Positions 10,448-41,245 of a stretch of DNA of 64,000 nucleotides are shown here, one piece after another. The position numbers and the translations under genes are program-made. The notes beneath the pieces were generated by a model, which ran no database searches, was not told where the DNA came from, and saw only the letters and a list, made by a program, of their open reading frames with translations. Location: NCBI GenBank assembly GCA_963665275.2, contig CAXXIN010000016.1, positions 128,001 through 192,000 of the forward strand, in the 5' to 3' direction. Positions within the stretch are counted from its first letter, which is position 1. Each line of letters begins with the position of its first letter. The DNA comes from Negativicutes bacterium (GTDB lineage: Bacteria > Bacillota > Negativicutes > UBA1444).

Positions 10448-10473
10448 CAGGAATTTTATGTTTGATGGCAAAT
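10448..10473 (+). promoter_or_regulatory. sigma-H-like promoter of the FHA/kinase operon
   Basis: CAGGA-N12-ATGGCAAAT; the same motif lies upstream of the convergent kinase (22946-22971); resembles the B. subtilis sigH consensus AGGA-N17/18-GAAT. Confidence 0.55.
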
Positions 10474-10544
10474 TTAAACTAAGTACGGAAAATCCATGAT
10501 CTTATTAAACTTGAAGCTGGATGGTGTGGAGGGATTTTCAGACT

Positions 10545-12065
10545 ATGCATGATGGACGCCTTTTGACCTGGCGGGCGGCAGCTCTGGCAATTGTACTGAT
10601 AGTGGGCCAATGTTTTCCGTTGTTTGCGGCTTCGCCTACCGTATATGATTTTCGGCTGACGCAAGGAGTTGCGAAACTTTCTGCGATCAAAGCGTACGTT
10701 GATATAATAGGCGCGGGGGATGTGCCGGTAAAAGGCTTGCAAATGGAAGGGTTGAAGGCTCAAATCGGAGCAATGCCGGTAAAGGTGACCAACATTGTTC
10801 CGTTTGAGGATGCTAAAGAAGGAATCGGTTATGTTTTACTGGTCGATGTCTCCAAATCCCTGTCAGCGGCGCAGTTTTCCCTGATGCAAGAAACCCTCGC
10901 CGCATTTGTTGATGCGATGTCGGATCTTGACCAGGCGGCGCTGGTTACCTTCGGCAGCGAAGTGAAGCTTATTCAGGATTTTTCGCCGAACCGTGGAAAA
11001 ATCAAGGAAAAAATTGCTTCAATTGCCCCATCCGAAGACGAAACCGCTTTTTATGGAGGTCTGGACAAGGCGATTACGGTGGCTAGGGCCGGTAGTGCGG
11101 AAGTCCCGGCTCGCCGGGTTGTGATCACGCTTACTGATGGGGTCAACGATTTAACAGGGGGTGTTACTAAAGGAGATATTTCGGCCAAGTTATCGACTGA
11201 CCCGGTTCCCTTGTATTTGGTCGGATACGTGCAGGGAAAACCAACACCGGAGGAAGAAAGCGCCATTGGCATTATGAAGGGTTTTGCCAGTCAATCGGGT
11301 GGACGTTTCTATGATGGTCGTGGTGGAGCCTGGCGCGGAATTTATTTCGCCGTTACGCGTTCCATTCGCAGCTCTTTTGTGGTTGAATTGGATGCAACAG
11401 GATTTCGTTCGGAAGGGGCAGTGTATCCTTTAGAACTGTCTCTGTTGGCAGCCAACCGGACTTGGACGTCAAAACTGCAACTGACGGTGCCCGCAGGGGG
11501 TACTCCTGCTGCACCGCATGGAGAATCCACCCCGGCAGCGCAACAGAAGACGGGACAGAATAACCCGGATGCAAATGTGTGGCTGTATGTAGGAATCGTT
11601 GTTGCGTTAACTGGAATCGGATGGTTTTGGACCCGGCGACGTTCCGCAGTGAAGAGCTTCGGCAGGGACGCCGATGTTGCTTCGCCGATGCAGCGAGTTC
11701 AATCTTTCGCCGATGCGAGGAATCCGCTTCCCGTGGGCGAGACCCCGGAACTCCCGGGAGTGCTTACGCGTTTGACGCGCATTCACGAAGGTCCGCCGCC
11801 GCATCAATTTGAGCTGGAAATTGTCGATCGGGTTATCCTCGGCCGTGATCCAGCGGTGAGCCAGCTGGTCTTTGAACATGATGAAACCATATCGCCATCG
11901 CATTGTGAAATTCTTTTTGAAAATGGATTCCTGTATGTGCAAGATTTGGAATCGGCACAGGGCACTTTTCTTAACGGGATGCCTCTGACAACCCGCCGGC
12001 GGATTGAAGAAGCTGATGTGTTGAGGATCGGTCAAATAGAGATGAGAATTACTTTTCCGAGCTGA
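10545..12065 (+). CDS. Signal peptide-vWA-TM-FHA membrane protein
   Basis: MIDAS DVSKS...T..LTDG; TM VWLYVGIVVALTGIGWFW followed by RRR; C-terminal FHA (LGRD...ISPSHC...SAQGTFLNG). Confidence 0.85.
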   Translation: MHDGRLLTWRAAALAIVLIVGQCFPLFAASPTVYDFRLTQGVAKLSAIKAYVDIIGAGDVPVKGLQMEGLKAQIGAMPVKVTNIVPFEDAKEGIGYVLLVDVSKSLSAAQFSLMQETLAAFVDAMSDLDQAALVTFGSEVKLIQDFSPNRGKIKEKIASIAPSEDETAFYGGLDKAITVARAGSAEVPARRVVITLTDGVNDLTGGVTKGDISAKLSTDPVPLYLVGYVQGKPTPEEESAIGIMKGFASQSGGRFYDGRGGAWRGIYFAVTRSIRSSFVVELDATGFRSEGAVYPLELSLLAANRTWTSKLQLTVPAGGTPAAPHGESTPAAQQKTGQNNPDANVWLYVGIVVALTGIGWFWTRRRSAVKSFGRDADVASPMQRVQSFADARNPLPVGETPELPGVLTRLTRIHEGPPPHQFELEIVDRVILGRDPAVSQLVFEHDETISPSHCEILFENGFLYVQDLESAQGTFLNGMPLTTRRRIEEADVLRIGQIEMRITFPS

Positions 12066-12138
12066 TGGTGAAAGGGTGTTGCTTCAGTGAATCAGGGAAG
12101 GTTAACCCGAACGGACTAAAAATTGGAAGGTGGTAAAA

Positions 12139-13478
12139 ATGTTGAAACAAAGAAAGGGAACACTGCATAAACCATGGTGTAAGTTCCTGGCATTGGCGTT
12201 GGCAATGGTTGTTATAGCGGTTACTGCAGTGCTACCGGTTGTTTCGGCGGCAGCCGAGGCCGATATCGAAACCATGAAAAATAGTTCCGTCCGGGTTCTG
12301 ATTACACAGGGTGGCAAACTACTGGGCAAAGGAAGCGGGTTTGTCATCGATGATGGAAAACACATCGTGACCAATTATCATGTTGTCGAAGCTGTTGAAA
12401 AAGAAGGGGCACAGGCGTGGGTAGCTCTCGGTCGGGGGCGTGATATGCTGCGGGCTCTGGAAATTCGGGCTACCTCTCAAGCCAACGATATTGCGGTGTT
12501 ATCAGTCGATCAGAAACTGGCCAAACCCAGCGTGAAGCTGGTTCGGCGCGATGACATAAAAGCCGCCGAGAGTGTTATTGCGGTTGGCTTTCCAGGCACC
12601 AGCGACCGAGTCGATGAAGATTGGCCGAATGCGCCGGCTACGCCTACTCCCGGTCAGGTCGTTCAGAAGCTGCGGCTCGGTGGGGGCGCACATATGATCC
12701 AAATAACTGCGGATATTAATCCTGGGGAATTCCGGAGGTCCAGTGTTCAATAGTCGCGGCTATGTCATCGGCATGTCCACATTGAAAGGCAGATCCTCTT
12801 CCCTGAACTATGCGGTTGATGCTGATGAAATCATGGAAGTTGTCAAACGGACGAATGCGGTAGCGGAATTAGCGCCCGCTGCCGGGGCGATAGCTGGCAG
12901 CAAAGATGCACCGGTGGCGCCGGTAGCCACTGAAACCAAGCCTGTACAGCAGCCCGCGCCTGAGCCTTTCTATCAGAATCCGATGTTTATCGGCGGGGCC
13001 GTAGTCGTTATCATTTTGATCGGCATTGCCGGATTCATGATGTCACGGAAAAAGAACTCGCCACAGCAAATGCAGATGCCTATGCAGCACCAGATGCCGC
13101 AGCAACAAATTCCACAGGGAATGCCGAGTGCGCCAAAGCCCACGGTAGCAGCTGCTGTTCACCACTCCACGGTCACCGGCGTCAGCGGTTTTTTTGCCGG
13201 CAAGACCATTTGAAATCCCCAGTGGACGGCCTATGCTTATCGGTAGGGATCCGCAACAGGCTCAACTGGTGTTTCCTGCCGACATGAGCGAAATCAGTCG
13301 GGTGCACTGCATTGTGACATTTGATGCTGCTACTCAGTCTTTCACGGTTGAAGACCGATCCACGAACGGAACCTTCTTCGTTAATGGGCAAAAGATCAAT
13401 GGGCAGGCGCGGTTGCGTTCCGGTGAGCGGTTCTATCTCAGTGAACCTACCCATCTGTTCGAGCTGCGCGCCGATTGA
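12139..13478 (+). pseudogene. Trypsin-like serine protease-TM-FHA protein, split by two +1 frameshifts (or sequencing errors)
   Basis: His VTNYHVV and Asp NDIAVL; removing one G at 12724-12727 restores INPGNSGGPVFN; removing one base near 13206-13208 joins GFFAGKT to FEIP...IGRD...ISRVHC...STNGTF (FHA). Confidence 0.85.
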
Positions 13479-14225
13479 AGATGCGAATGGATTCAGCCTG
13501 TCTGTCGAAGGGTTGGCGGGCGCAAGTCGAATCAGGATGCATATGGGGCTGAGAGCAACGAGGCCGGCGGGTGCTGGCTCGTTGCTGATGGCCTTGGCGG
13601 TCATGCGGGAGGGGAAGTTGCTTCACACATTGCTGTCGATCTTGTGCGGGCTCGTTTCCGCGAAGATTCGGCAGTATCGATGCAATTCGTTTCCGACTGC
13701 TTCCAAATAGTTCAGAGTGCGATTCGAGAAAAAGCTGCGGAAGATTTCAGCCTTTCGGGGATGCGGACAACGATGGTTTTGTTGGCCTGTAACCAAGCGA
13801 ACGCCGTATGGGGCCATGTTGGCGATTCACGGCTCTATTGGTTTCGCCAGGGGGCTCTCCTGCAACAGACCCGTGACCATAGTGTGCCGCAAATGCTTGT
13901 AGATGCAGGGAAAATCAGCCTACAGCAGATTCGGGGGCATGAGGATCAGAATCGCTTGACCCGTGCCTTGGGACAGGAAGGCGAGCTTCGTCCAACCCTT
14001 CTGGCGGAAAGCTTCCCAATTCAGGATGGAGACGCTGCCTTGCTTTGTAGTGATGGTGTCTGGACTTATGTGCTGGAGCCGGAAATGGAGGCTGATCTTT
14101 CGCTGTCACGTTCGGCAGAGGAGTGGCTGGAGCGATTGGAAGAGCGAATATTGCAGCGGGCAACGGGGCCCTATGACAACTACACCGCCATTGCGGTTTT
14201 GTTTCAAGGAGCAATCAAAACATGA
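13475..14225 (+). pseudogene. PP2C/PPM Ser/Thr phosphatase 1 with a +1 frameshift near the N-terminus
   Basis: Removing one G at 13510-13512 gives MRMDSACLSKVGGRKSNQD...VADGLGGHAGGEVAS...HVGDSRLY...LCSDG...DNYT. Confidence 0.85.
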
Positions 14226-15332
14226 CTGACAGGACAAACGCACCCTGCGGGGTGGTTCCCGGCAATGCGCAGCATATTGGCGCGCGTAGCGAACAGCAGG
14301 ATTCTTTCGGTTTTTCGGATTTTGACAATGCAGATTTCATCAAGCATGCCGGTATCCTGTCCGTAGTGGCTGATGGGATGGGCGGACTTGCCCTGGGCAA
14401 GGACTCCAGCGCGATCGCCGTGCAAACCTTTCTGGCAACTTATGCGGAAAAAGAGCCTGACGAGAAGATCACCGCAGTTCTTGACAAGAGTCTGCATAGC
14501 GCAAATCGGGCCGTCAACCGAAGGGCGGCGGAGGCAGGAGTAGAGGGAGAAGCCGGAACTACGCTGGTGGCAGTGGTGATCCACGAGGGGAAACTTTATT
14601 GGATCAGCGCTGGCGACAGCCGAATCTATTTGTTCCGGCAGGGACTCTTGCGTCAGCTTACGACCGACTACAACTACGGCCGAGTTCTTGATCGCATGGC
14701 GGAAAAAGGGGAAATCAGCCTCGGCGAGGCGGCGTCTCACCCGTCGCGTGCTGCCCTTACCAGTTATCTGGGCAAAGCGGAAGTGGATGAATATGATCGA
14801 CCGTCAGATTCCACGCTGGAGTTGTTGTCAGGTGATAAAGTGCTACTGGCCAGTGATGGGCTGTTCGGTTTTTTGCCGGAAGAAGATATTATCAGGTTGA
14901 TGGCATCCGAACCGCAGCATGCGGCTGAAGCGTTAGTTCAGGGAACGGTTGCCAGACAACTTCCCTATCAAGATAACGTAACGGTCGCTGTTTTGGGGGT
15001 ATGATCTACCGCTAGTACAAAATTTGGACCAGACGCAGACACGTAGGCAGGAACCGCAAAAAACAGCTGCAGCCAAGCCAACGCGAAAAGAACTCGTTGG
15101 CCGTGGCAAATGGATTAAGGCCGTTGGTCTCATCCTGGCCTTGGCGATAGCCGGTTTTTTCGGTGGACGTTATTTCGGCGCGCAAGGTCTGGCGCCGACA
15201 TCGTCCAAGCCTGTGGAAAATCCGACCGTCGAGGTTAGTCCGAAGAAGCCTGCCGAAAAGTCGGCAAATACGTCCGAGGACCCCCCGAAAAACGAGCCTT
15301 CAAAAGAATCTGGCAGTTCAGTGCCCCGGTGA
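14222..15332 (+). pseudogene. PP2C phosphatase 2 with TM and extracytoplasmic tail; catalytic domain intact (14222-15004), +1 frameshift before the tail
   Basis: R-x-x-QQD, VADGMGG, AGDSRIY, LASDG, DNVT; removing one G of G5 (14995-14999) reads VLGYDLPLVQNLDQ into ORF 15024-15332, which carries TM VGLILALAIAGFFGG. Confidence 0.8.
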
Positions 15333-15383
15333 TGGGGAAAAATTGAGGATGCTTTTATGCATACAGGAAAGGGGAATGAAAAC

Positions 15384-16049
15384 ATGGCCTTGATTCGTTG
15401 CCAACAGGGGCATTTCTATGATCCATCCCGACACAATGCGTGCCCATACTGCGGCAGTATGCCCGCTGGAGGAACCGGCGCCACAGAAGCTCAGCAGCAG
15501 CCGCCGATGCCGCCGCCTTTGGGCGGAGCTCCGTCTCCGGTAGGCGCAACGCGGCCGTTGCGTGATGTGCCGCAGCCAGTTATCGGGCCCACTGTGCCGC
15601 TTCGTCCGGCAGGCGTCCACCTGGGAGGCTCTCTCAAAGGGCCTGAGGAAGGCCGTACAGTGGCTGTTGACATGAAGAAAGTCGGGATTGATCCGGTGGT
15701 CGGCTGGCTGGTTTGTATCAAAGGACCTTCCCGAGGACGCGATTATCGCATTCGCAGTGGGCGGAACGGGATCGGACGGTCGGAAGCCATGGATGTTCAA
15801 ATCGCTGGAGATAATACAGTTTCCAGAGAGAATCACGCGTTCCTAGTCTACGAGCCTCGTAAACGCAGTTTCAGTATCCGCCCCGGCGATGGGAGGGGAC
15901 TGGTATATTTGAATGGGGATGAAGTCGTTCAGGCTTCCGACATCAAAGGGTATGACATTATAGAAATCGGAGAAACCCAACTGATGTTTGTACCGCTTTG
16001 TGGCGAAAAGTTTAACTGGGACCAGGGGAAAGAAGACGCGGCGGAATAA
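15384..16049 (+). CDS. Zn-ribbon plus FHA domain protein
   Basis: N-terminal CxxxH...CPYC, Pro-rich linker, PVVGWLVCIKGP..G, IGRS...VSRENH FHA; AAAGGGG RBS. Confidence 0.85.
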   Translation: MALIRCQQGHFYDPSRHNACPYCGSMPAGGTGATEAQQQPPMPPPLGGAPSPVGATRPLRDVPQPVIGPTVPLRPAGVHLGGSLKGPEEGRTVAVDMKKVGIDPVVGWLVCIKGPSRGRDYRIRSGRNGIGRSEAMDVQIAGDNTVSRENHAFLVYEPRKRSFSIRPGDGRGLVYLNGDEVVQASDIKGYDIIEIGETQLMFVPLCGEKFNWDQGKEDAAE

Positions 16050-16087
16050 TAGGACGCTGTTTGGAAAAACCAAGAGGAGTGTAGAGA

Positions 16088-17698
16088 TTGGGAACATGGG
16101 ATGCGCTATGTCCCGGGTGCTTTGCTGATAAAGGGAATGAGTCCGTCTGTCCATACTGCGGCTATGATGAGTCTGAACGACGCACCCCTTTGGTGTTGTC
16201 CTATCGCAGTGTTCTGAACGGACAATTTATCGTGGGCAAGGTGCTGGGGAAACCCGGTGGATTTGGCATTACATATCTCGGATGGGATATTAACCTTGCT
16301 ACGCTTGTCGCAGTCAAGGAGTATTTGCCGCGCGATTATGCCGGCCGAGATTCGGACCATGCCTCTGTTATGGCACATTCGCGCGAAGATGCGAGTTTGT
16401 TCCGCTTCGGTCTGGAGCAGTTCCTACAGGAAGCCCGTACATTGGCACGTTTCGATCATCCCAATGTTGTCAGGGTCCGCAGCTTTTTTGAACAGCACGG
16501 AACAGCCTACTTAGTCATGGACTATCTGCAAGGAGTGAATTTGGCGGAATATCTTCTTGCCATGGGCGGTCGCCTGACAGAACAGCAGGCTTGTGAGATT
16601 ATGATGCCGATCCTTGGCGGGTTGCAGGAAGTCCATGCAAAGGGATTCCTGCACCGAGATATCAAGCCGCAGAACATCTATGTTACGTCGTCCGGTAGAC
16701 CGATTTTGCTGGATTTTGGGGCAGCGCGCCAAGCAATGGGAGAACGCAGCCGCAGTCTCTCCGTCGTTCTAACCCCCGGTTTTTCACCGTATGAGCAATA
16801 TCACCGACGCGGTGAGCAAGGCCCTTGGACTGATATTTATGCGCTCGCGGCCACTTATTACTATCTGCTGACCGGGCATGCGCCGCCGGATGCGCCGGAA
16901 CGCGTTGCCATTGATGAGTTGGCGCCGCTAAATTCTTTGGTTCCTGGCATCTCGCCCGGTTTGAACGCGGCGATTATGCAGTCTCTTTCACTGGAGGCTG
17001 GCGCACGGCCGCAAGATGTTTTCATATTTCGCGGTCTAGTTAATGGGCAAATCGCACCAGCCATCCCCGCAGCTCCCTCTATTCCAAGCACGCCGCCGCC
17101 CCTGCCGCAGGCTATTACAACGGGGTTTTCTGCTCCTGGTTCACCCATCCTGGCAACTCCTCCTCTATCGGTGCAACCTTCTGTCGCGAAGGCTGCATCA
17201 ACGCCGCAACCCAATGTTTATTCGCCTCCGTCGCCAGTTCCTAACCGCGCCTATTCTCCACCGCCGCCCCCCCCTATGCCGGCGGACAGCAAACGACAGT
17301 CTTCGTCCGGGATAGGGCTTGTTGTGGGAGGCCTTGTTTTAGCCTTAGCAGTGGCAGGATGGTATTTCTTTGGAGGAACGAGTAAAGATAAACAGGCTTC
17401 GCCAGCTCCTGCATCAAAGCAAACTACCGCTCCCGCTTCGAACGTAGCCCCGCTTCCGTCAGAACAACCTACAAAGACTCAGCCTATAGCGCCGGCTCAA
17501 CCGGTTACGACAGATAAACCGGCGGTAGCTGTTCCTTCAAAGCCTGGCGAAGTAGATAAAACTCCATCAGAAGTATCTCCCGCTCCATCGGAGACGCCGG
17601 CTGCTCCGAGGCAGCAACCGGCAGTACGCACTCAGCCTCCCGCTGACAAACCGGCCACCCCCACTCCACCCAAAAGAGATAAAGGGTCGCTATGGTAA
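16088..17698 (+). CDS. Hanks-type Ser/Thr protein kinase: Zn ribbon-kinase-Pro-rich-TM-Pro-rich tail
   Basis: CPGC/CPYC, GGFGITY, AVKE, HRDIKPQN, DFG, SPYEQ, TDIY; TM IGLVVGGLVLALAVAGWYFF; TTG start after GAGGAG. Confidence 0.92.
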   Translation: MGTWDALCPGCFADKGNESVCPYCGYDESERRTPLVLSYRSVLNGQFIVGKVLGKPGGFGITYLGWDINLATLVAVKEYLPRDYAGRDSDHASVMAHSREDASLFRFGLEQFLQEARTLARFDHPNVVRVRSFFEQHGTAYLVMDYLQGVNLAEYLLAMGGRLTEQQACEIMMPILGGLQEVHAKGFLHRDIKPQNIYVTSSGRPILLDFGAARQAMGERSRSLSVVLTPGFSPYEQYHRRGEQGPWTDIYALAATYYYLLTGHAPPDAPERVAIDELAPLNSLVPGISPGLNAAIMQSLSLEAGARPQDVFIFRGLVNGQIAPAIPAAPSIPSTPPPLPQAITTGFSAPGSPILATPPLSVQPSVAKAASTPQPNVYSPPSPVPNRAYSPPPPPPMPADSKRQSSSGIGLVVGGLVLALAVAGWYFFGGTSKDKQASPAPASKQTTAPASNVAPLPSEQPTKTQPIAPAQPVTTDKPAVAVPSKPGEVDKTPSEVSPAPSETPAAPRQQPAVRTQPPADKPATPTPPKRDKGSLW

Positions 17699-17739
17699 TT
17701 GAAATCGACAGGAGCAGCAATGAAAGGAGAGGTACGGGA

Positions 17740-18156
17740 ATGAAGTGGACAAGAAAGTTCGGGACAAAAGTGTTTTTGGCGTGCATGATTGGAATTTTTG
17801 CGATCAGCGGAACCGCTGCGGCTGACCCAGTGGTGTGGATGGGACCATCAGGAACTGGAGGTTGGAATGGATTCATGCAAGTGATCATGCAGCAGGATTA
17901 TCGTCTCCAGATGTCCAATGGGAATCCTTACTGGAATACGCTGATGCTGCCTGTAGGGGAGTCTTCACTATCAAGCGGCACATCTTCCTATATGGGAATG
18001 CCAGCCTTTGGATTTTGCGCCGCTCCCGGCCAGTGCTATATGGTGCTGGTACAGCGGCCTTTATCATACAGTTCCATGGCGTGTCCTCCGGTTCCACCGG
18101 CGGCTCCGGGGCCCAATACCCCCAACCAGTCAGGCAAACCCACTTCACTCTGGTAG
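17740..18156 (+). CDS. Small secreted hypothetical protein (Met/Pro/Gly-rich, three Cys after the signal peptide)
   Basis: AGGAGAGG RBS, signal peptide ending TAAA-DP, operonic position. Confidence 0.65.
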   Translation: MKWTRKFGTKVFLACMIGIFAISGTAAADPVVWMGPSGTGGWNGFMQVIMQQDYRLQMSNGNPYWNTLMLPVGESSLSSGTSSYMGMPAFGFCAAPGQCYMVLVQRPLSYSSMACPPVPPAAPGPNTPNQSGKPTSLW

Positions 18157-18193
18157 ATCAAAGAACCCATATGAGAAAGGAAGGATTTTAAGG

Positions 18194-19141
18194 ATGAAAC
18201 GAGGCATGGCGGCAGTTCTCTTCGTATGCATGGTTGCATTGGTATCCCTGATTCCGATTACAGCGCTGGCTGCGCCAGATATGCAGGCTGGGAACGCAAC
18301 AGGTGGACTTCGTTACACCGTTTCTGTGGCTAAGTTTGAAAATCGGGCTGGCTACCATGGCCAATGGGATATCGGCGACGGCTGGGGTATCGTCATGACT
18401 GACATTCTCAACCAGACTGGCAAATTCATCGTGCTAGGTGAGACCGATATGCGCAAGGAAGCAATGGCTGAGCAGGATATTGCGGCGGCCGGCCGCACGG
18501 CCCAGGGGGCGATTACTCCCGGTATGGGCAATATGACGCCAGCGCAGATCTTGGTTAAAGGCGCCATTACCCACGTTGCAAACAATACGAGCGGCGGTGG
18601 CGGCGGGGTCTCTTTCGGCGGAGTTTCACTAGGTGGCGCAAGTGCCAATTCCCAGGTTAATGTCACCATGTATATGGTTCACACTTCAACCGGCCAGATC
18701 TTGGCTTCAAAAAGCGTCGTAGGCAAGTCCAACAAGTCCGGCGGATTCGTCGGATATTCCGGTAACGGTTGGGGCGCAGGCGCTGGCGGCTTCAAAAGCG
18801 ACAACGTTGGCAAGGCCGTCGAAAATGCCGTCCAGCAGGGCGTTCAATGGATGATCGAGCAGTTGCCGAAGATCACCTGGCGGGGCAATGTTGTCATGGT
18901 CAGAGACGGTAATGTCTATATTAACCGTGGCACCCGCGAAGGCGTCAGTGAAGGCATGAGTTTCGTGGTGGGAACGGCTGAAGCACTTCGGGATCCCAGC
19001 ACAGGCGAAGTACTGGATGTTAGCTTCAACACGCTGGCGAACCTCACCGTCACTTCGGTGAAGGAGAAGATCTCTATCGCCACGGTGAATAACGGCAACG
19101 TTGATCAGATCGAAAAAGGAATGTTCGTGCAACTGCCCTAA
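18194..19141 (+). CDS. CsgG/HfaB-family protein with FlgT-like C-terminal domain
   Basis: Signal peptide; VSVAKFEN, TGKFIVL, AQILVKGAIT, TGQILAS; C-terminal VYINRG..EGV..G...DPSTGEVL. Confidence 0.8.
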   Translation: MKRGMAAVLFVCMVALVSLIPITALAAPDMQAGNATGGLRYTVSVAKFENRAGYHGQWDIGDGWGIVMTDILNQTGKFIVLGETDMRKEAMAEQDIAAAGRTAQGAITPGMGNMTPAQILVKGAITHVANNTSGGGGGVSFGGVSLGGASANSQVNVTMYMVHTSTGQILASKSVVGKSNKSGGFVGYSGNGWGAGAGGFKSDNVGKAVENAVQQGVQWMIEQLPKITWRGNVVMVRDGNVYINRGTREGVSEGMSFVVGTAEALRDPSTGEVLDVSFNTLANLTVTSVKEKISIATVNNGNVDQIEKGMFVQLP

Positions 19142-19243
19142 GGGCGATCAAAAAAGAAGCTCCCGGCATTGGTGATGTGATATGCTCCCCTAAAGGTAGA
19201 CAGGTTAAATAATAAAACCTACTACCGAAGGGGGAGCTTTTTC

Positions 19244-19921
19244 GTGCCCAAAATACGCCAATACAGTGCTGCTGAAAAACTTTCCATATTGAAAGAACTT
19301 GATACGAGTTCGACTATAAATATTGCTAACAAGTACGATCTTAACCAATCCACCATAACCGATTGGCTTCATCGGTATGAAGTGTATGGATATAAGGGTT
19401 TAGAAATTCGGGCCCATAATAAAAGCTATTCTGCCGATCTTAAAATTCAAGCGGTTCAGGACTATCTTTCCGGAAATGGCTCATTACGTCAAATCATTGA
19501 TAAGTATAAAATAACCAACAAGAAACAGCTCAGGAACTGGATCAAAAAGTATAATAGTCATAGCAGCATTAAATCCAACGAAGGTGGAGGAACGTACGCT
19601 ATGACTAAGGGCCGGGTTACAACTTGGCAAGAGCGAATTGACACTGTTCTATACTGTCTTGCTCACAACTACGATTACTTAAACACCGCCAAAAACTTTC
19701 AGGTTTCCTACCCGCAGGTTTACCAATGGGTAAAGAAGTATGAAGAAGGTGGAGAAGATGCATTAAAAGATGGCCGAGGGCGAAAACGAACAGTAGAAGA
19801 ATTAAGTGATACGGATAGGCAAAAGCTTGCGGTAAAGAAACTTGAGTCTGAAAATGAGCGCCTCAGAGCGGAGAACGCTCTATTAAAAAAGTTACAGGAA
19901 CTCGAAGGGAGGCGATTTTAA
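19244..19921 (+). CDS. IS3 transposase OrfA (multiple HTH, C-terminal leucine zipper)
   Basis: Repeated HTH (W..KY) motifs, LESENERLRAENALLKK; A-AAA-AAG -1 slip site at 19885-19891. Confidence 0.9.
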   Translation: MPKIRQYSAAEKLSILKELDTSSTINIANKYDLNQSTITDWLHRYEVYGYKGLEIRAHNKSYSADLKIQAVQDYLSGNGSLRQIIDKYKITNKKQLRNWIKKYNSHSSIKSNEGGGTYAMTKGRVTTWQERIDTVLYCLAHNYDYLNTAKNFQVSYPQVYQWVKKYEEGGEDALKDGRGRKRTVEELSDTDRQKLAVKKLESENERLRAENALLKKLQELEGRRF

Positions 19922-20799
19922 GTCAAGTCCGGCAAGAAAAAATCTACCTGGCAATCCAGGCAGTGCAACAAGAACACCATTTTAGTATCAATTTGCTTTG
20001 TCAAATTGCAGAGATTCCTCGTTCGAGCTATTACAAATGGTTAAACCGCCCCGTGAGTCCCCGTGAGCAGGAGAACGGCCAGCTCATGAAAGAGATGATC
20101 TTTCTCTACGAGAAAATTGAGGGCATTTATGGGTACCGCCAATTAACCATCCATCTGCGGCGACGAAACGATCAGCGAATTAACCATAAGCGGATCTATC
20201 GTCTGATGAGGGTGGCAGGAATCCAATCCGTTATTCGGCGGAAGAAAAAGAAATATGTGAAGTCAACGCCACAGCAAATTGCTGAAAATCTCTTGAATCG
20301 CAAGTTCATCGCAGCACAGTCCAATGAAAAATGGTTGACCGACGTGACAGAGTTTAAATATGGAGACGGCCACAAAGCCTATCTTAGCGCTATTTTGGAC
20401 TTACATGACAAATCCATTGTTGCCTATGCGTTAAGCCATTCCAATAATAATAACCTTGTTTTCAACACATTGGATTTAGCATTTAAAGCTGCCCCGGGCA
20501 GTTCGCCGATGATTCACAGCGACCGAGGTTTTCAATATACCTCGTGGGAGTTTAAGAAACGATTAGATGCTCATGGTTTGACACAGAGTATGTCGCGAGT
20601 CGGGAAGTGCATTGACAATGGCCCTATGGAAGGATTCTGGGGAACACTCAAGTGTGAAAAATATTACCTGCACAAATACCAAACCTATGAAGCCCTTGAG
20701 AAAGACATTGATCACTACATTTATTTTTACAATTATGAACGATTGCAGGCAAAATTAAACAGCCTCAGTCCGATGGAAGTCCGGACCAAGGCTGCCTAA
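19891..20799 (+). CDS. IS3 transposase OrfB (rve DDE integrase core), expressed by -1 frameshift
   Basis: WLTDVT, IHSDRGFQY, SRVGKCIDNGPMEGFWGTLK; frame is open back to the A6G motif. Confidence 0.92.
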   Translation, partial: VTGTRREAILSQVRQEKIYLAIQAVQQEHHFSINLLCQIAEIPRSSYYKWLNRPVSPREQENGQLMKEMIFLYEKIEGIYGYRQLTIHLRRRNDQRINHKRIYRLMRVAGIQSVIRRKKKKYVKSTPQQIAENLLNRKFIAAQSNEKWLTDVTEFKYGDGHKAYLSAILDLHDKSIVAYALSHSNNNNLVFNTLDLAFKAAPGSSPMIHSDRGFQYTSWEFKKRLDAHGLTQSMSRVGKCIDNGPMEGFWGTLKCEKYYLHKYQTYEALEKDIDHYIYFYNYERLQAKLNSLSPMEVRTKAA

Positions 20800-20899
20800 A
20801 TAGATTTACTTTTTTATGGTGTCTACTTGACGGGGGGGCAGTTCAATGATTTCGATGTCTGGAGCTTCTTTTGCATGTGTCAAGCAAGGCGTGGAAGTT

Positions 20900-22894
20900 T
20901 TACCAGTAGAAAGATCCGTCCCGGTAGGAGGCGACAACGGCTCTGCCATCTTTTTTCAGCACAACCCGGTATTGGCCGTTCGGGCTGTAGGGAACGTCAT
21001 CGCGATATTCTCCCACATATTCGGCAACGATAACGCCGCTGTTCGTCAAAGCCTGAGTGCCATTGCCATGGCGCTTATCGTCCTTCCATTCGCCGACATA
21101 GGAGCTGCCTGAGGACCACTTCATGGTTCCCTGACCATTGCGCTTGTCATTGCTGTAGCTGCCTTTGTAAACGCGCCCGTCGACGTAGGTATAGGTTCCC
21201 TGGCCGCTTTTATTCCCCTGGTCGAATCCACCGACATACTGGTCTCCACGCGAGGTCATTAGCGTGCCCTCCCCGTGAGGAAGGTCATCCTTGAAGGGGC
21301 CGGTGTATTTCGTGCCGTCCTTCGTTGTCATAATTCCTGCGCCATTGGCTTTGTCATTGACCCAGGCTCCCGTATAATTCCGGCCATCCGGTTGGGTTTG
21401 CGATCCGGTGCCGTTTCGTTTTCCATCTTTAAAGGAGCCCTCATAGTGAAGGCCGCTTTTCAAGGTCAACTTTCCCAATCCATCGAATTTGTCGTTGCTC
21501 CAGTCACCCTCGTAGGAGTCGCCGGATTTTGCAGCAAGGATACCCTTACCTTGGCGTTGTCCGCCGGCAAAATAACCGGTATATACAGACCCGTCGGCAT
21601 AGGTTAACTTACCCTTTCCAGCCGGAGTTCCCCAGCTGACATTTCCTTCGTAGGCGCCGTTGCGGTAGGAGATAGTATGGTAGCCGTTCATGCTGTTATA
21701 GGACATCGCTACCCCGACGAGCACCAAGATCAGAAGTGCTGCGGACCAGAGGAGGATTTTGCGGCTGCGCTTTTGAGGCGGCGTTGGTGGCGCGATGATG
21801 CCTGGGGGAGGTTCCATAGGTGGCGGAGGCGGTGGCAACCATTGCGAGGCGGGGCCGGACGGAGGCGGGGGCGGAACGGGCGCAGACCAAATCGGTGGTG
21901 GCATGGGCGGTGCATAGACGATGGGCTGCGGCTCGGTACCGACTGAACCCTTCAGGGCGGCCTGAAACGTCGCCACGTCTTGCGGGCGATTGGCCGGATC
22001 AATGGATAAAGCCTGCAAAAGAGCATAGTTGAAATGCGGCGAAAGAGCTGGTATGACTTGCAGCGGTGGGATCAGAGACTCCTGCGCGACCCGTTCCGCA
22101 GCCTCCGGCGGTACGAAGCCTGTTACTAGATGATAGAGGGTCGCTGCGCAAGCATAGATATCGGTCCAAGCGCCTTGCTTGCCGTGTCGATGATATTGTT
22201 CCCAGGGCGCATAACCGGGGGTGATAATGGTTGTCATGCCTCGGTTAAGCTCCCCAAGGGACTGCCGGGCGGTTCCAAAGTCCAGCAGAATTGGGCGGCC
22301 GGTTGAGGTAATATAAATGTTCTGCGGCTTGATATCACGGTGCAGAAACCCTTTGGCATGCACTTCACGCAATCCAGCCAGAACAGGCAGCATCGTGTCG
22401 AGGGCTGCTTGTTCAGATATCCTGCCACCCAAATTGAGCAGGTGATCCTGCAGACTGTTGCCCTGAAGGTAATCCATCACCAGATAGGCGGTACCATTCT
22501 CCTGAAAAAAGGAACGAACCCGGACCACGTTGGGGTGGTCGAATTGTGCGAGAGTACGGGCTTCATGCAAAAATTGCTCCAGCCCATACCGGAAATGCTC
22601 CGCGTCATCATTGGTGTGGGCACTGACCGTCAAGCGGTCGAAGTGCCGTCCGGCGACCTCGCGCGGCAAATACTCCTTAATGGCGACGAAGGTTGCCAAT
22701 TGGCTGTCCCATCCCAGGTAAGTGATCCCAAAACCGCCAGGCTTACCAAGAAGTTTTCCCACCAGATACTGCCCATTCATCAAGGGGGTTCCCGGCGGGA
22801 GCAATAATGGACTTAGCGGCGCGTTTTCGTCAAAGCCGCACGACGCGCAAACACCATTGTTGAAAGTTTCTAGGAAACAAGCGGGGCAAATCAT
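20900..22894 (-). CDS. Hanks-type Ser/Thr kinase: Zn ribbon-kinase-Pro-rich-TM-MORN repeats
   Basis: CPAC/CASC, GGFGITY, HRDIKPQN, DFG; TM ILLWSAALLILVLVGVAM; ~10 23-aa Y-x-G-x-W/F...G-x-G repeats; GGAGG RBS before ATG 22894. Confidence 0.92.
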   Translation of the reverse strand: MICPACFLETFNNGVCASCGFDENAPLSPLLLPPGTPLMNGQYLVGKLLGKPGGFGITYLGWDSQLATFVAIKEYLPREVAGRHFDRLTVSAHTNDDAEHFRYGLEQFLHEARTLAQFDHPNVVRVRSFFQENGTAYLVMDYLQGNSLQDHLLNLGGRISEQAALDTMLPVLAGLREVHAKGFLHRDIKPQNIYITSTGRPILLDFGTARQSLGELNRGMTTIITPGYAPWEQYHRHGKQGAWTDIYACAATLYHLVTGFVPPEAAERVAQESLIPPLQVIPALSPHFNYALLQALSIDPANRPQDVATFQAALKGSVGTEPQPIVYAPPMPPPIWSAPVPPPPPSGPASQWLPPPPPPMEPPPGIIAPPTPPQKRSRKILLWSAALLILVLVGVAMSYNSMNGYHTISYRNGAYEGNVSWGTPAGKGKLTYADGSVYTGYFAGGQRQGKGILAAKSGDSYEGDWSNDKFDGLGKLTLKSGLHYEGSFKDGKRNGTGSQTQPDGRNYTGAWVNDKANGAGIMTTKDGTKYTGPFKDDLPHGEGTLMTSRGDQYVGGFDQGNKSGQGTYTYVDGRVYKGSYSNDKRNGQGTMKWSSGSSYVGEWKDDKRHGNGTQALTNSGVIVAEYVGEYRDDVPYSPNGQYRVVLKKDGRAVVASYRDGSFYW
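20960..21652 (-). repeat. ~10 tandem MORN repeats (23 aa / 69 bp) in the kinase ectodomain
   Basis: e.g. YEGDWSNDKFDGLGKLTLKSGLH, YEGSFKDGKRNGTGSQTQPDGRN. Confidence 0.85.
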
Positions 22895-22945
22895 GATAGG
22901 GCCTCCTTCAAATAACACGACAGAAAAATTTGCGATTATATTATT

Positions 22946-22971
22946 ATTTGCCATGAATTGAATTAATCCTG
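22946..22971 (-). promoter_or_regulatory. sigma-H-like promoter of the MORN kinase
   Basis: Minus strand CAGGA-N12-ATGGCAAAT, identical in motif and spacing to 10448-10473. Confidence 0.55.
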
Positions 22972-40774: not shown

Positions 40775-41245
40775 GTGAACGATTTTGATTTTATGGGATT
40801 GGCATTGGATCAAGCCCGACAGGCTGCTGCGGCGGGAGAAGTTCCCATCGGAGCTGTTTTGGTTCTTGATGGTGAAGTCATTGCTCAAGCCTACAATCTT
40901 CGTGAAACTGACCAAGATGCTACTGCGCACGCCGAGATGCTCGTGATCCGGGACGCTTGCCGGAAATTGGGCCGATGGCGCTTATCTGGCGCCACGATTT
41001 TTGTAACGATTGAGCCATGTCCCATGTGCGCGGGAGCCTTGGTAATGAGCCGGGTTAAACGTTTGGTTTACGGAAGTCCCGATTTTCGCGCTGGCGCCGT
41101 TGAGTCTATATTTAATATTGTTCAGCATCCTGCGTTGAACCATCGACTATTGGTAACTGCGGGAGTACGGCAGGAAGAGTGCGCTGCAGTAATGCAGGCT
41201 TTTTTTCGCGAAAGACGCCGTTCTGCGGCAGCAGACAATGCTTGA
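40775..41245 (+). CDS. tadA: tRNA adenosine(34) deaminase
   Basis: EVPIGAV, HAEM, EPCPMCAGA. Confidence 0.95.
   Translation: MNDFDFMGLALDQARQAAAAGEVPIGAVLVLDGEVIAQAYNLRETDQDATAHAEMLVIRDACRKLGRWRLSGATIFVTIEPCPMCAGALVMSRVKRLVYGSPDFRAGAVESIFNIVQHPALNHRLLVTAGVRQEECAAVMQAFFRERRRSAAADNA

Follow-up and report, generated by a model that had tools for sequence, protein, structure and literature searches.

Nine genes at positions 10521-22954 of a 64,000-nucleotide stretch of a Negativicutes genome (UBA1444; GenBank assembly GCA_963665275.2, contig CAXXIN010000016.1, positions 128,001 to 192,000, hereafter the window) raise the question of whether Hanks kinases, PP2C phosphatases and FHA proteins encoded side by side constitute one signalling system, and what a protease, a vWA protein and a CsgG-family protein are doing among them. 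A first-pass annotation, made from the sequence without database searches, had proposed a circuit of writers (two Hanks kinases), erasers (two PP2C phosphatases, one of them membrane-anchored) and readers (three FHA proteins), encoded by eight genes in one direction and one convergent gene. Our open reading frame (ORF) and Pfam analyses bear out all nine genes, their domains, their orientations and the writer/eraser/reader set, but the annotation had overlooked that three of the genes are out of frame as assembled and that an IS3-family element lies among them. We find that the locus is composed of two conserved units, a core module (unit A) and a separable add-on (unit B), and we consider it about 60% probable that together they form a composite transmembrane phosphothreonine signalling system, the mechanism of which we infer.

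Unit A comprises a vWA-transmembrane-FHA protein, a trypsin-transmembrane-FHA protein, two PP2C phosphatases, a zinc ribbon-linker-FHA protein (ZnFHA) and a zinc-ribbon receptor kinase, and it recurs across many phyla. ZnFHA (15384..16049 on the plus strand, within the ORF 15357-16049; ~221 residues; Pfam FHA 2e-4 and Yop-YscD_cpl 4e-6) has 1361 homologues at E ≤ 1e-3, with full-length proteins of ~48% identity in Bacilli, Methylomonas and Desulfamplus, and a relative of it is encoded in at least 535 of 185,579 species genomes (one genome per species). The best 80 of these at least 535 loci were analyzed with an ORF and hidden Markov model script, and the parts were counted on the 72 that lie outside the window's own clade, 40 of which have at least 8 kb on both sides. 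A kinase is encoded near ZnFHA at 65 of the 72 loci (39 of the 40 with long flanks) and a PP2C phosphatase of any kind at 68 (40/40). The trypsin-transmembrane-FHA and vWA-transmembrane-FHA proteins are each present at 41 of the 72 loci (24 and 25 of the 40, respectively), one or other of these two arms at 60 (36/40), and all six parts together at 18 (11/40). Gene order is partly retained as well, with PP2C 1 directly 3' of the trypsin-FHA gene in 40/47 cases and the vWA gene directly 3' of ZnFHA in 29/68, although in the window these last two are four genes apart. The hosts include Bacilli, Clostridia, Syntrophomonadaceae, Synergistota, Methylococcaceae, Chromatiaceae, Desulfobacterota, Acidobacteriota, Ignavibacteria and Bdellovibrionales, and one short contig with ZnFHA was binned as an archaeon; among the cultured carriers are Priestia abyssalis, Cohnella yongneupensis, Brevibacillus dissolubilis, Oscillibacter valericigenes and Methylomonas lenta. 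The co-occurrence in other genomes that the first-pass annotation called for is therefore confirmed across related loci, but its combination of all the parts into one unit is not, as the core is a widespread module and the trio of kinase, small protein and CsgG-like protein is a separable addition to it.

The two arms of unit A have the out-to-in topology that had been proposed for them, each with a predicted signal peptide, an ectodomain, one transmembrane helix and a cytoplasmic FHA domain. In the vWA protein (10521..12065, plus strand, 514 residues; Pfam VWA 1e-12 and FHA 1e-12) the helix is followed by the residues RRR. The trypsin protein (12130..13478, plus strand) would have ~447-451 residues if intact, its likely start is the ATG at 12139, and Pfam Trypsin_2 (3e-14) and FHA (2e-14) match the segments 12130-12753 and 13194-13478. 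The residues on which function would depend are well conserved in both ectodomains: the catalytic triad of the protease is retained in nearly all of 49 relatives (H in 48, D in 49, S in 49), and so is the metal ion-dependent adhesion site (MIDAS) of the vWA domain in 50 relatives (D 48, S 48, S 47, T 45, D 50), with the DxSxS sequence intact in the window. The FHA domain on the protease is kept too (G 49, R 49, S 44, H 49 and N 35 of 49).

Elsewhere the FHA tail is fused to other membrane proteins. Across five of the related loci it is joined to PrsW protease, M48 peptidase, DUF5684 or Big_2/PKD ectodomains, and five related clusters carry an ABC(-2) transporter with two FHA domains, which suggests that the tagging of membrane effectors with FHA is a general principle, with the tail serving as a portable tag. 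In five ZnFHA clusters we also observed genes for MotA/ExbB-like proton channels, often with a coiled-coil protein. The window cluster has no MotA/ExbB gene, and the transmembrane helix of its vWA protein has no Asp.

Three unit A genes, those of the trypsin protein, PP2C 1 and PP2C 2, are out of frame in the deposited assembly. One surplus base is present at each of positions 12724 (in GGGG), 13209 (TTT), 13510 (GGG) and 14995 (GGGGG), four within 2.3 kb. The first two spread the trypsin-FHA gene over three frames. The third leaves PP2C 1 (13481..14225, plus strand; a cytoplasmic protein of ~250 residues if intact, with Pfam PP2C_2 in the ORF 13644-14225) without an in-frame start, and the fourth splits PP2C 2 (14222..15332, plus strand; ~365 residues if intact; PP2C_2 3e-15 at 14222-15004) into ORFs of 260 and 102 residues, cutting off a membrane tail that consists of a C-terminal transmembrane helix and an extracytoplasmic Lys/Pro-rich segment. 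So many frame-breaking insertions in so short a distance, beside an IS3 element that adjoins the cluster, are what would be seen if the system were being lost in this strain, a reading that we regard as highly improbable. Over positions 12000-21000 we compared the assembly with Logan contigs of three public sequencing runs, one (X20) at a depth of 43 and two from a single sample (X21 and X22) at depths of 5-9. The contigs of all three runs are without exactly these four bases, and the long contigs are otherwise identical to the assembly over 9 kb; three differing letters at 16678-16687 in X20 and X21 are attributable to short cross-matching pieces of the paralogous kinase gene. Moreover, all four changes are +1 in short homopolymers, as is typical of sequencing error, the remaining genes of the cluster are intact, and the orthologues are single intact ORFs in five relatives (in the relative L011 the trypsin-FHA protein has 451 residues, PP2C 1 has 250 and PP2C 2 has 371). 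Because three runs do not have the four bases and the orthologues are intact, the insertions are probably assembly indels, the alternative being very recent strain-specific lesions. Classification of the three genes as pseudogenes was rejected on the basis of the run contigs, and it is the call to which such homopolymer indels in a deposited assembly would lead annotators. The assembly, which is 92.6% complete in only 20 contigs as compared with 100% for relatives in 60-70 contigs, may hold further local indel errors of the same kind.

The IS3-family element (19178..20845, plus strand; orfA 19244-19921, orfB 19963-20799; Pfam HTH_28 and rve) has inverted repeats at its termini and is flanked by a 3-bp target duplication (ATG). 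It is inserted in the loop of an intergenic hairpin (19152-19169 / 20855-20872) that separates the CsgG-like gene from the convergent kinase gene, and it breaks no gene, which is a further argument against decay of the locus; the hairpin, lying between convergent genes, is a bidirectional terminator. The X20 contig carries the element, and eleven relatives have no insertion at this site. The assembly has one full copy, together with an 81-bp fragment on contig C3. The X21 and X22 contigs break inside the right end of the element and a loose end there has a different flank, and the sample therefore holds further copies of it.

Within the window's own family the locus is stable. Full-length matches to the vWA-FHA protein, at 57-67% identity, were found in all 12 other genomes of the family; outside it, a genome of another family (G032) has a match of 29% identity, and the remaining matches among 41 genomes are to the FHA domain only. 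The order of all nine genes and of the flanking genes is the same in the relatives examined. In five loci that span both flanks the cluster lies between a leuA-like gene and the gene for a CCA-adding enzyme, and a further locus spans one flank. As a separate observation, from five family loci of one genus, identities are 77-89% for ZnFHA, PP2C 2, the CsgG-like protein and the pieces of the protease but 57-67% for the vWA-transmembrane-FHA protein, which diverges faster than these; PP2C 1 and the small secreted protein, at 55-67%, come close to it in divergence.

Unit B consists of a kinase ending in GSLW, a small protein ending in PxSLW and a CsgG-family protein, which are conserved together and separable from unit A. 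In the window the kinase is STK1 (16088..17698, plus strand; Pfam Pkinase 3e-31), in which a zinc ribbon, the kinase domain, a Pro-rich linker and a transmembrane helix are followed by a disordered extracytoplasmic tail of ~110 residues with the terminus GSLW-COOH. It is followed by the gene of the small secreted protein (17740..18156, plus strand, within a 154-residue ORF at 17692-18156; ~138 residues), which has Cys in its core and P-x-S-L-W-COOH at the end of its disordered tail, and then by the gene of the CsgG/HfaB-family protein (18194..19141, plus strand, within the ORF 18008-19141; 315 residues). This order was found in six family loci, with one further locus ending after the small protein. 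In 10 metagenome loci with the small protein the CsgG-like gene is 3' of it in nine (the tenth contig ends there) and a kinase gene is 5' of it in seven (the other three contigs begin at the small gene), and none contradicts the order of the trio. The trio has a narrow distribution, occurring in only 2/36 Negativicutes families sampled, and the small protein was found in 13/401 Negativicutes genomes, with 11/12 of the other genomes of the window's family, 1/1 of a second family (f21) and none elsewhere. The f21 genome, G032, demonstrates the separability of the two units: its core cluster, with its own kinase, is on one contig, and a kinase, a 91-residue secreted protein and a CsgG-like gene are together on another.

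The shared terminus is the distinctive feature of unit B. The kinase tail ends in GSLW in all nine family loci in which the C-terminus is visible, and no kinase of the other clades ends in SLW. The small protein ends in PxSLW in every case seen, and in alignment A2 the P, S, L and W are invariant down to 21% identity. Among the 11,344 ORFs of at least 80 residues in the genome only two have an SLW C-terminus, those of STK1 and the adjoining small protein. The small protein itself is an orphan, with no Pfam family, matches at E ≤ 1e-3 to only 8 of 1.84 billion cluster representatives, and no usable match in the protein atlas. Its AlphaFold2 model is of low confidence (predicted local distance difference test score, pLDDT, 55.6; predicted template modelling score, pTM, 0.33). 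Marginal distant matches to P0247 (3e-4) and P0248 (1e-3), AIR9-type Ig repeat proteins, give only a hint that its core may be Ig-like.

What the third member of the trio does bears on a specific part of the earlier proposal, namely that a CsgG-type channel in the outer membrane, through which the small protein or some other substrate would be exported or assembled, may be gated by phosphorylation. The protein has a Sec signal peptide and a clear CsgG domain (Pfam PF03783, E 1.4e-25, 90 bits vs. a cut-off of 20.8) followed by an FlgT_C-like beta domain (2e-4). Its two Gly-rich loops (residues 136-153 and 185-202), which were modelled at low confidence, lie roughly where we take the membrane hairpins of CsgG to be; the gene of the small protein is always immediately upstream; and the invariant C-terminal motif of that protein could serve as an export signal. 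Against this, the NCBIfam CsgG equivalog model scores 19 bits vs. a cut-off of 505, and a Foldseek search with the AlphaFold2 monomer model (pLDDT 72, pTM 0.66, moderate confidence) returned FlgT, a periplasmic ring protein, as the best match over the full length (8z5n, E 2e-17, TMq 0.59, 289 columns; 3w1e, E 3e-16, 293 columns), whereas CsgG matched the N-domain only (E 1e-9 over ~205 columns). No lipobox is conserved, as the window protein has a non-canonical LFVC and the signal peptide of the L011 orthologue lacks Cys altogether, and no csgA/B/E/F-like families are present among the window ORFs scanned. Homologues of 52-64% identity stand without a kinase or SLW protein nearby in three other Negativicutes genomes, and STK1, a membrane protein that could not be exported, bears the same SLW terminus as the supposed substrate. 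A curli-type export gate is consequently not indicated, since the full-length fold is closest to FlgT and there is no conserved lipobox, and we consider gating of export through this protein unlikely. It is, as judged from the model, likely a ring-type envelope protein. Its family is a large one, with 2023 homologues at E ≤ 1e-3 among 8000 candidates scored and proteins of ~60% identity in Methylomusa and in a Thermoanaerobaculaceae metagenome-assembled genome, and no flagellar families were found among the window ORFs scanned, a search that covered the window only.

The ninth gene of the cluster encodes a second receptor kinase, STK2 (20900..22954, minus strand; Pfam Pkinase 9e-32 and MORN 3e-39), which has a zinc ribbon, a kinase domain, a transmembrane helix and extracytoplasmic MORN repeats and ends in FYW-COOH. 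Its position is conserved in the family loci, and we noted that in all of them it has a conserved aromatic terminus, (S/V)FYW-COOH. The kinase domains of STK1 and STK2 are paralogues of 62% identity, and those of STK1, STK2 and the core and trio kinases of G032 are 56-66% identical to one another. The cluster is single-copy in the genome and holds two of the three Hanks kinases detected genome-wide with the queries used.

In the composite signalling system that we favor, a signal at the kinase ectodomain would lead to phosphorylation of Thr residues in the kinase itself (juxtamembrane regions), in the FHA-tailed proteins (linkers) and in the ZnFHA adaptor. The cytoplasmic FHA tails would dock on these phosphothreonine sites, such that the protease and the vWA protein would be gathered at the kinase or released from it, and docking would in this way set the place and time of periplasmic proteolysis and ligand capture; the soluble and the membrane PP2C would reset the state. 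That phosphorylation clusters FHA tails can reasonably be inferred by analogy with PknF/Rv1747 and with PpkA/PppA/Fha1 of the type VI secretion system (T6SS). The adaptor may be a GarA-like phospho-switch or a bridge. Its best solved relative is GarA (E 2e-4, profile against PDB), and in alignment A1 a Thr within an EG-x-T-V-A-hydrophobic motif, which immediately precedes the FHA core, is invariant. Unit B would form the input side, with the STK1 tail and the small protein competing, via SLW-COOH, for a single outer-envelope site that the CsgG/FlgT-like ring would probably provide; this would couple the state of the envelope to the kinase, and the paralogous MORN kinase STK2 may be a second input. 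A complex prediction that paired residues 27-318 of the CsgG-like protein (alignment A3) with residues 31-142 of the small protein (A2), run without controls, scored 0.00 vs. a mark of 0.32 and weighs neither for nor against such an interaction.

A bolder version of the same wiring has the STK1 tail cross the periplasm as a tether, its SLW-COOH plugging into the CsgG/FlgT-fold ring, beneath or within the outer membrane, in competition with the small protein, so that the state of the envelope would set kinase activity and phosphothreonine-FHA docking would move the protease and the MIDAS vWA domain in and out of action. We consider this version doubtful; if true, the tether would amount to integrin-like inside-out/outside-in signalling in a diderm Firmicute.

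Several observations weigh against the composite signalling system as we have drawn it. SLW docking is its least supported step, the basis for which is gene linkage and the shared motif. Binding of phosphothreonine in the classical manner by the FHA tail of the vWA protein is uncertain because its canonical residues are partly degenerate: conservation there is the weakest among the FHA tails (R 39, S 40, H 44 and N 38 of 50 relatives), the window protein keeps GR and SxxH and has Q for N, and the L011 orthologue has GS, AAAH and SATGT where GR, SxxH and S-x-N-G-T are canonical. ZnFHA has likewise kept GR and SxxH and lost the canonical Asn of its Ser-x-Asn-Gly-Thr loop (alignment A1). If the four insertions were real in the sequenced strain, three of the genes would be inactive there. 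Lastly, the distribution of ZnFHA is patchy (39/401 Negativicutes genomes), the kinase ectodomains are highly variable across loci (Sel1, FGE-sulfatase, MORN, Ig-like), and defense-type genes neighbor the module at two loci, AAA_21/FRG/PD-(D/E)XK at L084 and a STAND-like ATPase at L064, all of which would fit a system of biological conflict too.

In such a system, directed against phages or competitors, the diversifying kinase ectodomains would sense an invader, and FHA-tailed proteases, vWA proteins, transporters and motors would remodel or sacrifice the envelope. The patchiness extends over many phyla and the effector arms are swappable, as this would lead one to expect, and there is a related theme in Actinobacteria, the Esr pathway, in which MoxR and vWA are combined with a kinase, a phosphatase and an FHA output and which is described, in the part of the source available, as a defense against epibionts (PMC13622651). 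However, in every family locus that reaches the flanks the cluster occupies one chromosomal position between housekeeping genes, unlike defense islands, and no MoxR, NTPase, nuclease or toxin domain was found by Pfam in the window cluster. PADLOC gave no system-level match, and with NCBIfam it returned generic kinase, trypsin and PP2C matches only and no named system. We regard a role in conflict as rather doubtful.

The same parts, Hanks kinases, PP2C and membrane FHA proteins, also make up the PknB/FhaA/FhaB/PstP type of regulator of envelope growth and division, and the cluster could by that token serve peptidoglycan or outer-membrane biogenesis. The FHA domain of the vWA protein matches the FhaB/FipA model weakly (E 2e-6, below the cut-off), some related loci include genes for a beta-lactamase-like protein, an M15 D-Ala-D-Ala carboxypeptidase, a polysaccharide deacetylase and a sortase, and the cluster's share of the kinases detected in the genome would be consistent with this role. 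Opposed to it are the lack of rodA, pbpA, PASTA and MviN in the cluster (by Pfam) and the presence of the module in so few Negativicutes genomes, because of which it is not a core growth function; we judge this role improbable.

The surroundings of the cluster are unremarkable. It is flanked by a minus-strand block of leuA-like, aconitase and isocitrate dehydrogenase genes on one side and by the gene for the CCA-adding enzyme on the other, and Pfam scanning of the window ORFs identified housekeeping genes outside it. The eight co-directional genes are called an operon because their junctions are short or overlapping; terminator-like sites within them (15 observed vs. 15.3 expected from shuffles) neither back nor break this call. 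At 40775-41245, adjoined by dnaX and recR, is a gene for a MafB19-like/tadA-type deaminase (Pfam 4e-42), which by its size and context is most simply a tRNA adenosine deaminase. The reported lack of T6SS, type VII secretion system and Ter genes holds among the window ORFs scanned, and neither VipB/TssC (PF05943) nor TerD (PF02342) had a match in the 92.6% complete genome.

To our knowledge, circuits of Hanks kinases, PP2C and FHA proteins have been well studied in a few settings only: mycobacterial growth, T6SS activation and the archaellum. The module described here joins phosphothreonine readers to outward-facing parts, a trypsin-like protease and a vWA domain in the window and PrsW, M48 or an ABC transporter elsewhere, and it recurs in Bacillota, Synergistota, Pseudomonadota, Desulfobacterota and Acidobacteriota. 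If our reading is correct, it would be a general bacterial means of controlling extracytoplasmic proteolysis and ligand capture from the cell interior, and the SLW trio, with its short and mutable motif, would provide a handle on the connection between such a kinase and the outer envelope. The literature searched, with subscription journals and supplements outside its scope, contained no description of this architecture, and neither FHA-tailed ecto-proteases nor a ZnFHA adaptor appear in the nearest described systems, as far as the available parts of those sources extend.

Among these systems, FlgT and CsgG, which form rings in the outer envelope, are the relatives of a single component. Like FlgT of the Vibrio H-ring, the CsgG-like protein is modelled with the same two-domain architecture over its full length, and it shares the N-domain of the curli channel CsgG without the lipobox; it differs from both in that its gene is accompanied by those of a kinase and of a small protein with a common SLW C-terminus. 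For the vWA and kinase genes there are several partial parallels. The vWA protein of the TerY type is soluble and cytoplasmic, with neither a transmembrane helix nor an FHA domain. In TerY-P and E. coli YegI-YegK-YegL, vWA, PP2C and Hanks kinase genes are adjacent as in the cluster, but the triad has no FHA readers, whereas the vWA domain of the cluster lies between a signal peptide and a transmembrane helix and is fused to FHA. Helix-tethered vWA proteins with TolQ-like motors have been described, with no kinase or PP2C named and FhaC as the sole "FHA" in the available part of that source (PMC12204202), and an actinobacterial theme of kinase-zinc-ribbon, PP2C and vWA proteins is, in the portion accessible, linked to GAP1-N2 GTPases (PMC7159879).

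Closer to the ZnFHA-vWA pairing is the Arn system of Sulfolobus, which is cytoplasmic, uses PP2A and controls archaellum expression. It pairs an FHA protein that has a zinc-binding N-terminus with a vWA protein, as the cluster does, but it is archaeal, and the vWA domain of the cluster is extracytoplasmic and has an FHA domain of its own. Searches by sequence against PDB with the ZnFHA profile (A1, E ≤ 0.01) returned GarA, Mb1858 and an adenylate-cyclase-like FHA protein and not ArnA, and those with the vWA-FHA protein did not return ArnB. ArnA (zinc-finger-FHA) and ArnB (vWA) are regulated by the kinases ArnC and ArnD and a phosphatase, according to the part of the report available (PMC6509490). 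In M. tuberculosis, PknF phosphorylates Thr in the linker between the FHA domains of the ABC transporter Rv1747, as given in the accessible part of that study (PMC8339232). There, as at the related loci, five of which carry a two-FHA ABC transporter, a kinase stands beside an FHA-bearing membrane protein, but PknF has a single effector, without the PP2C pair, protease, vWA protein or zinc-ribbon adaptor, and the window cluster has no ABC transporter.

The Deinococcus radiodurans operon DRA0331-DRA0334 encodes a vWA protein, a transmembrane kinase, an FHA protein and an FHA-PP2C protein, and was stated by its authors to be previously unreported (bioRxiv 10.64898/2026.01.23.701218). Compared by description only, and from part of the source, it resembles the cluster in its combination of vWA, transmembrane Hanks kinase, stand-alone FHA and PP2C, and differs from it in the fusion of FHA to PP2C and in having no FHA-tailed protease or second kinase. 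A further comparison is with PpkA/PppA/Fha1 (TagH) of the T6SS of Pseudomonas and relatives, where the genes for a membrane Hanks kinase, a PP2C and an FHA protein likewise stand together. In that pathway, docking of FHA on phosphothreonine switches on an envelope machine, and PpkA itself carries the periplasmic vWA domain. In the cluster, which has no T6SS genes with it, the vWA domain belongs instead to an FHA-tailed protein distinct from the kinases, which have a disordered tail or MORN repeats in its place, and an FHA-tailed protease, a second PP2C and the ZnFHA adaptor are added. The cluster is a real, conserved and apparently undescribed variant of Hanks-kinase/PP2C/FHA signalling.

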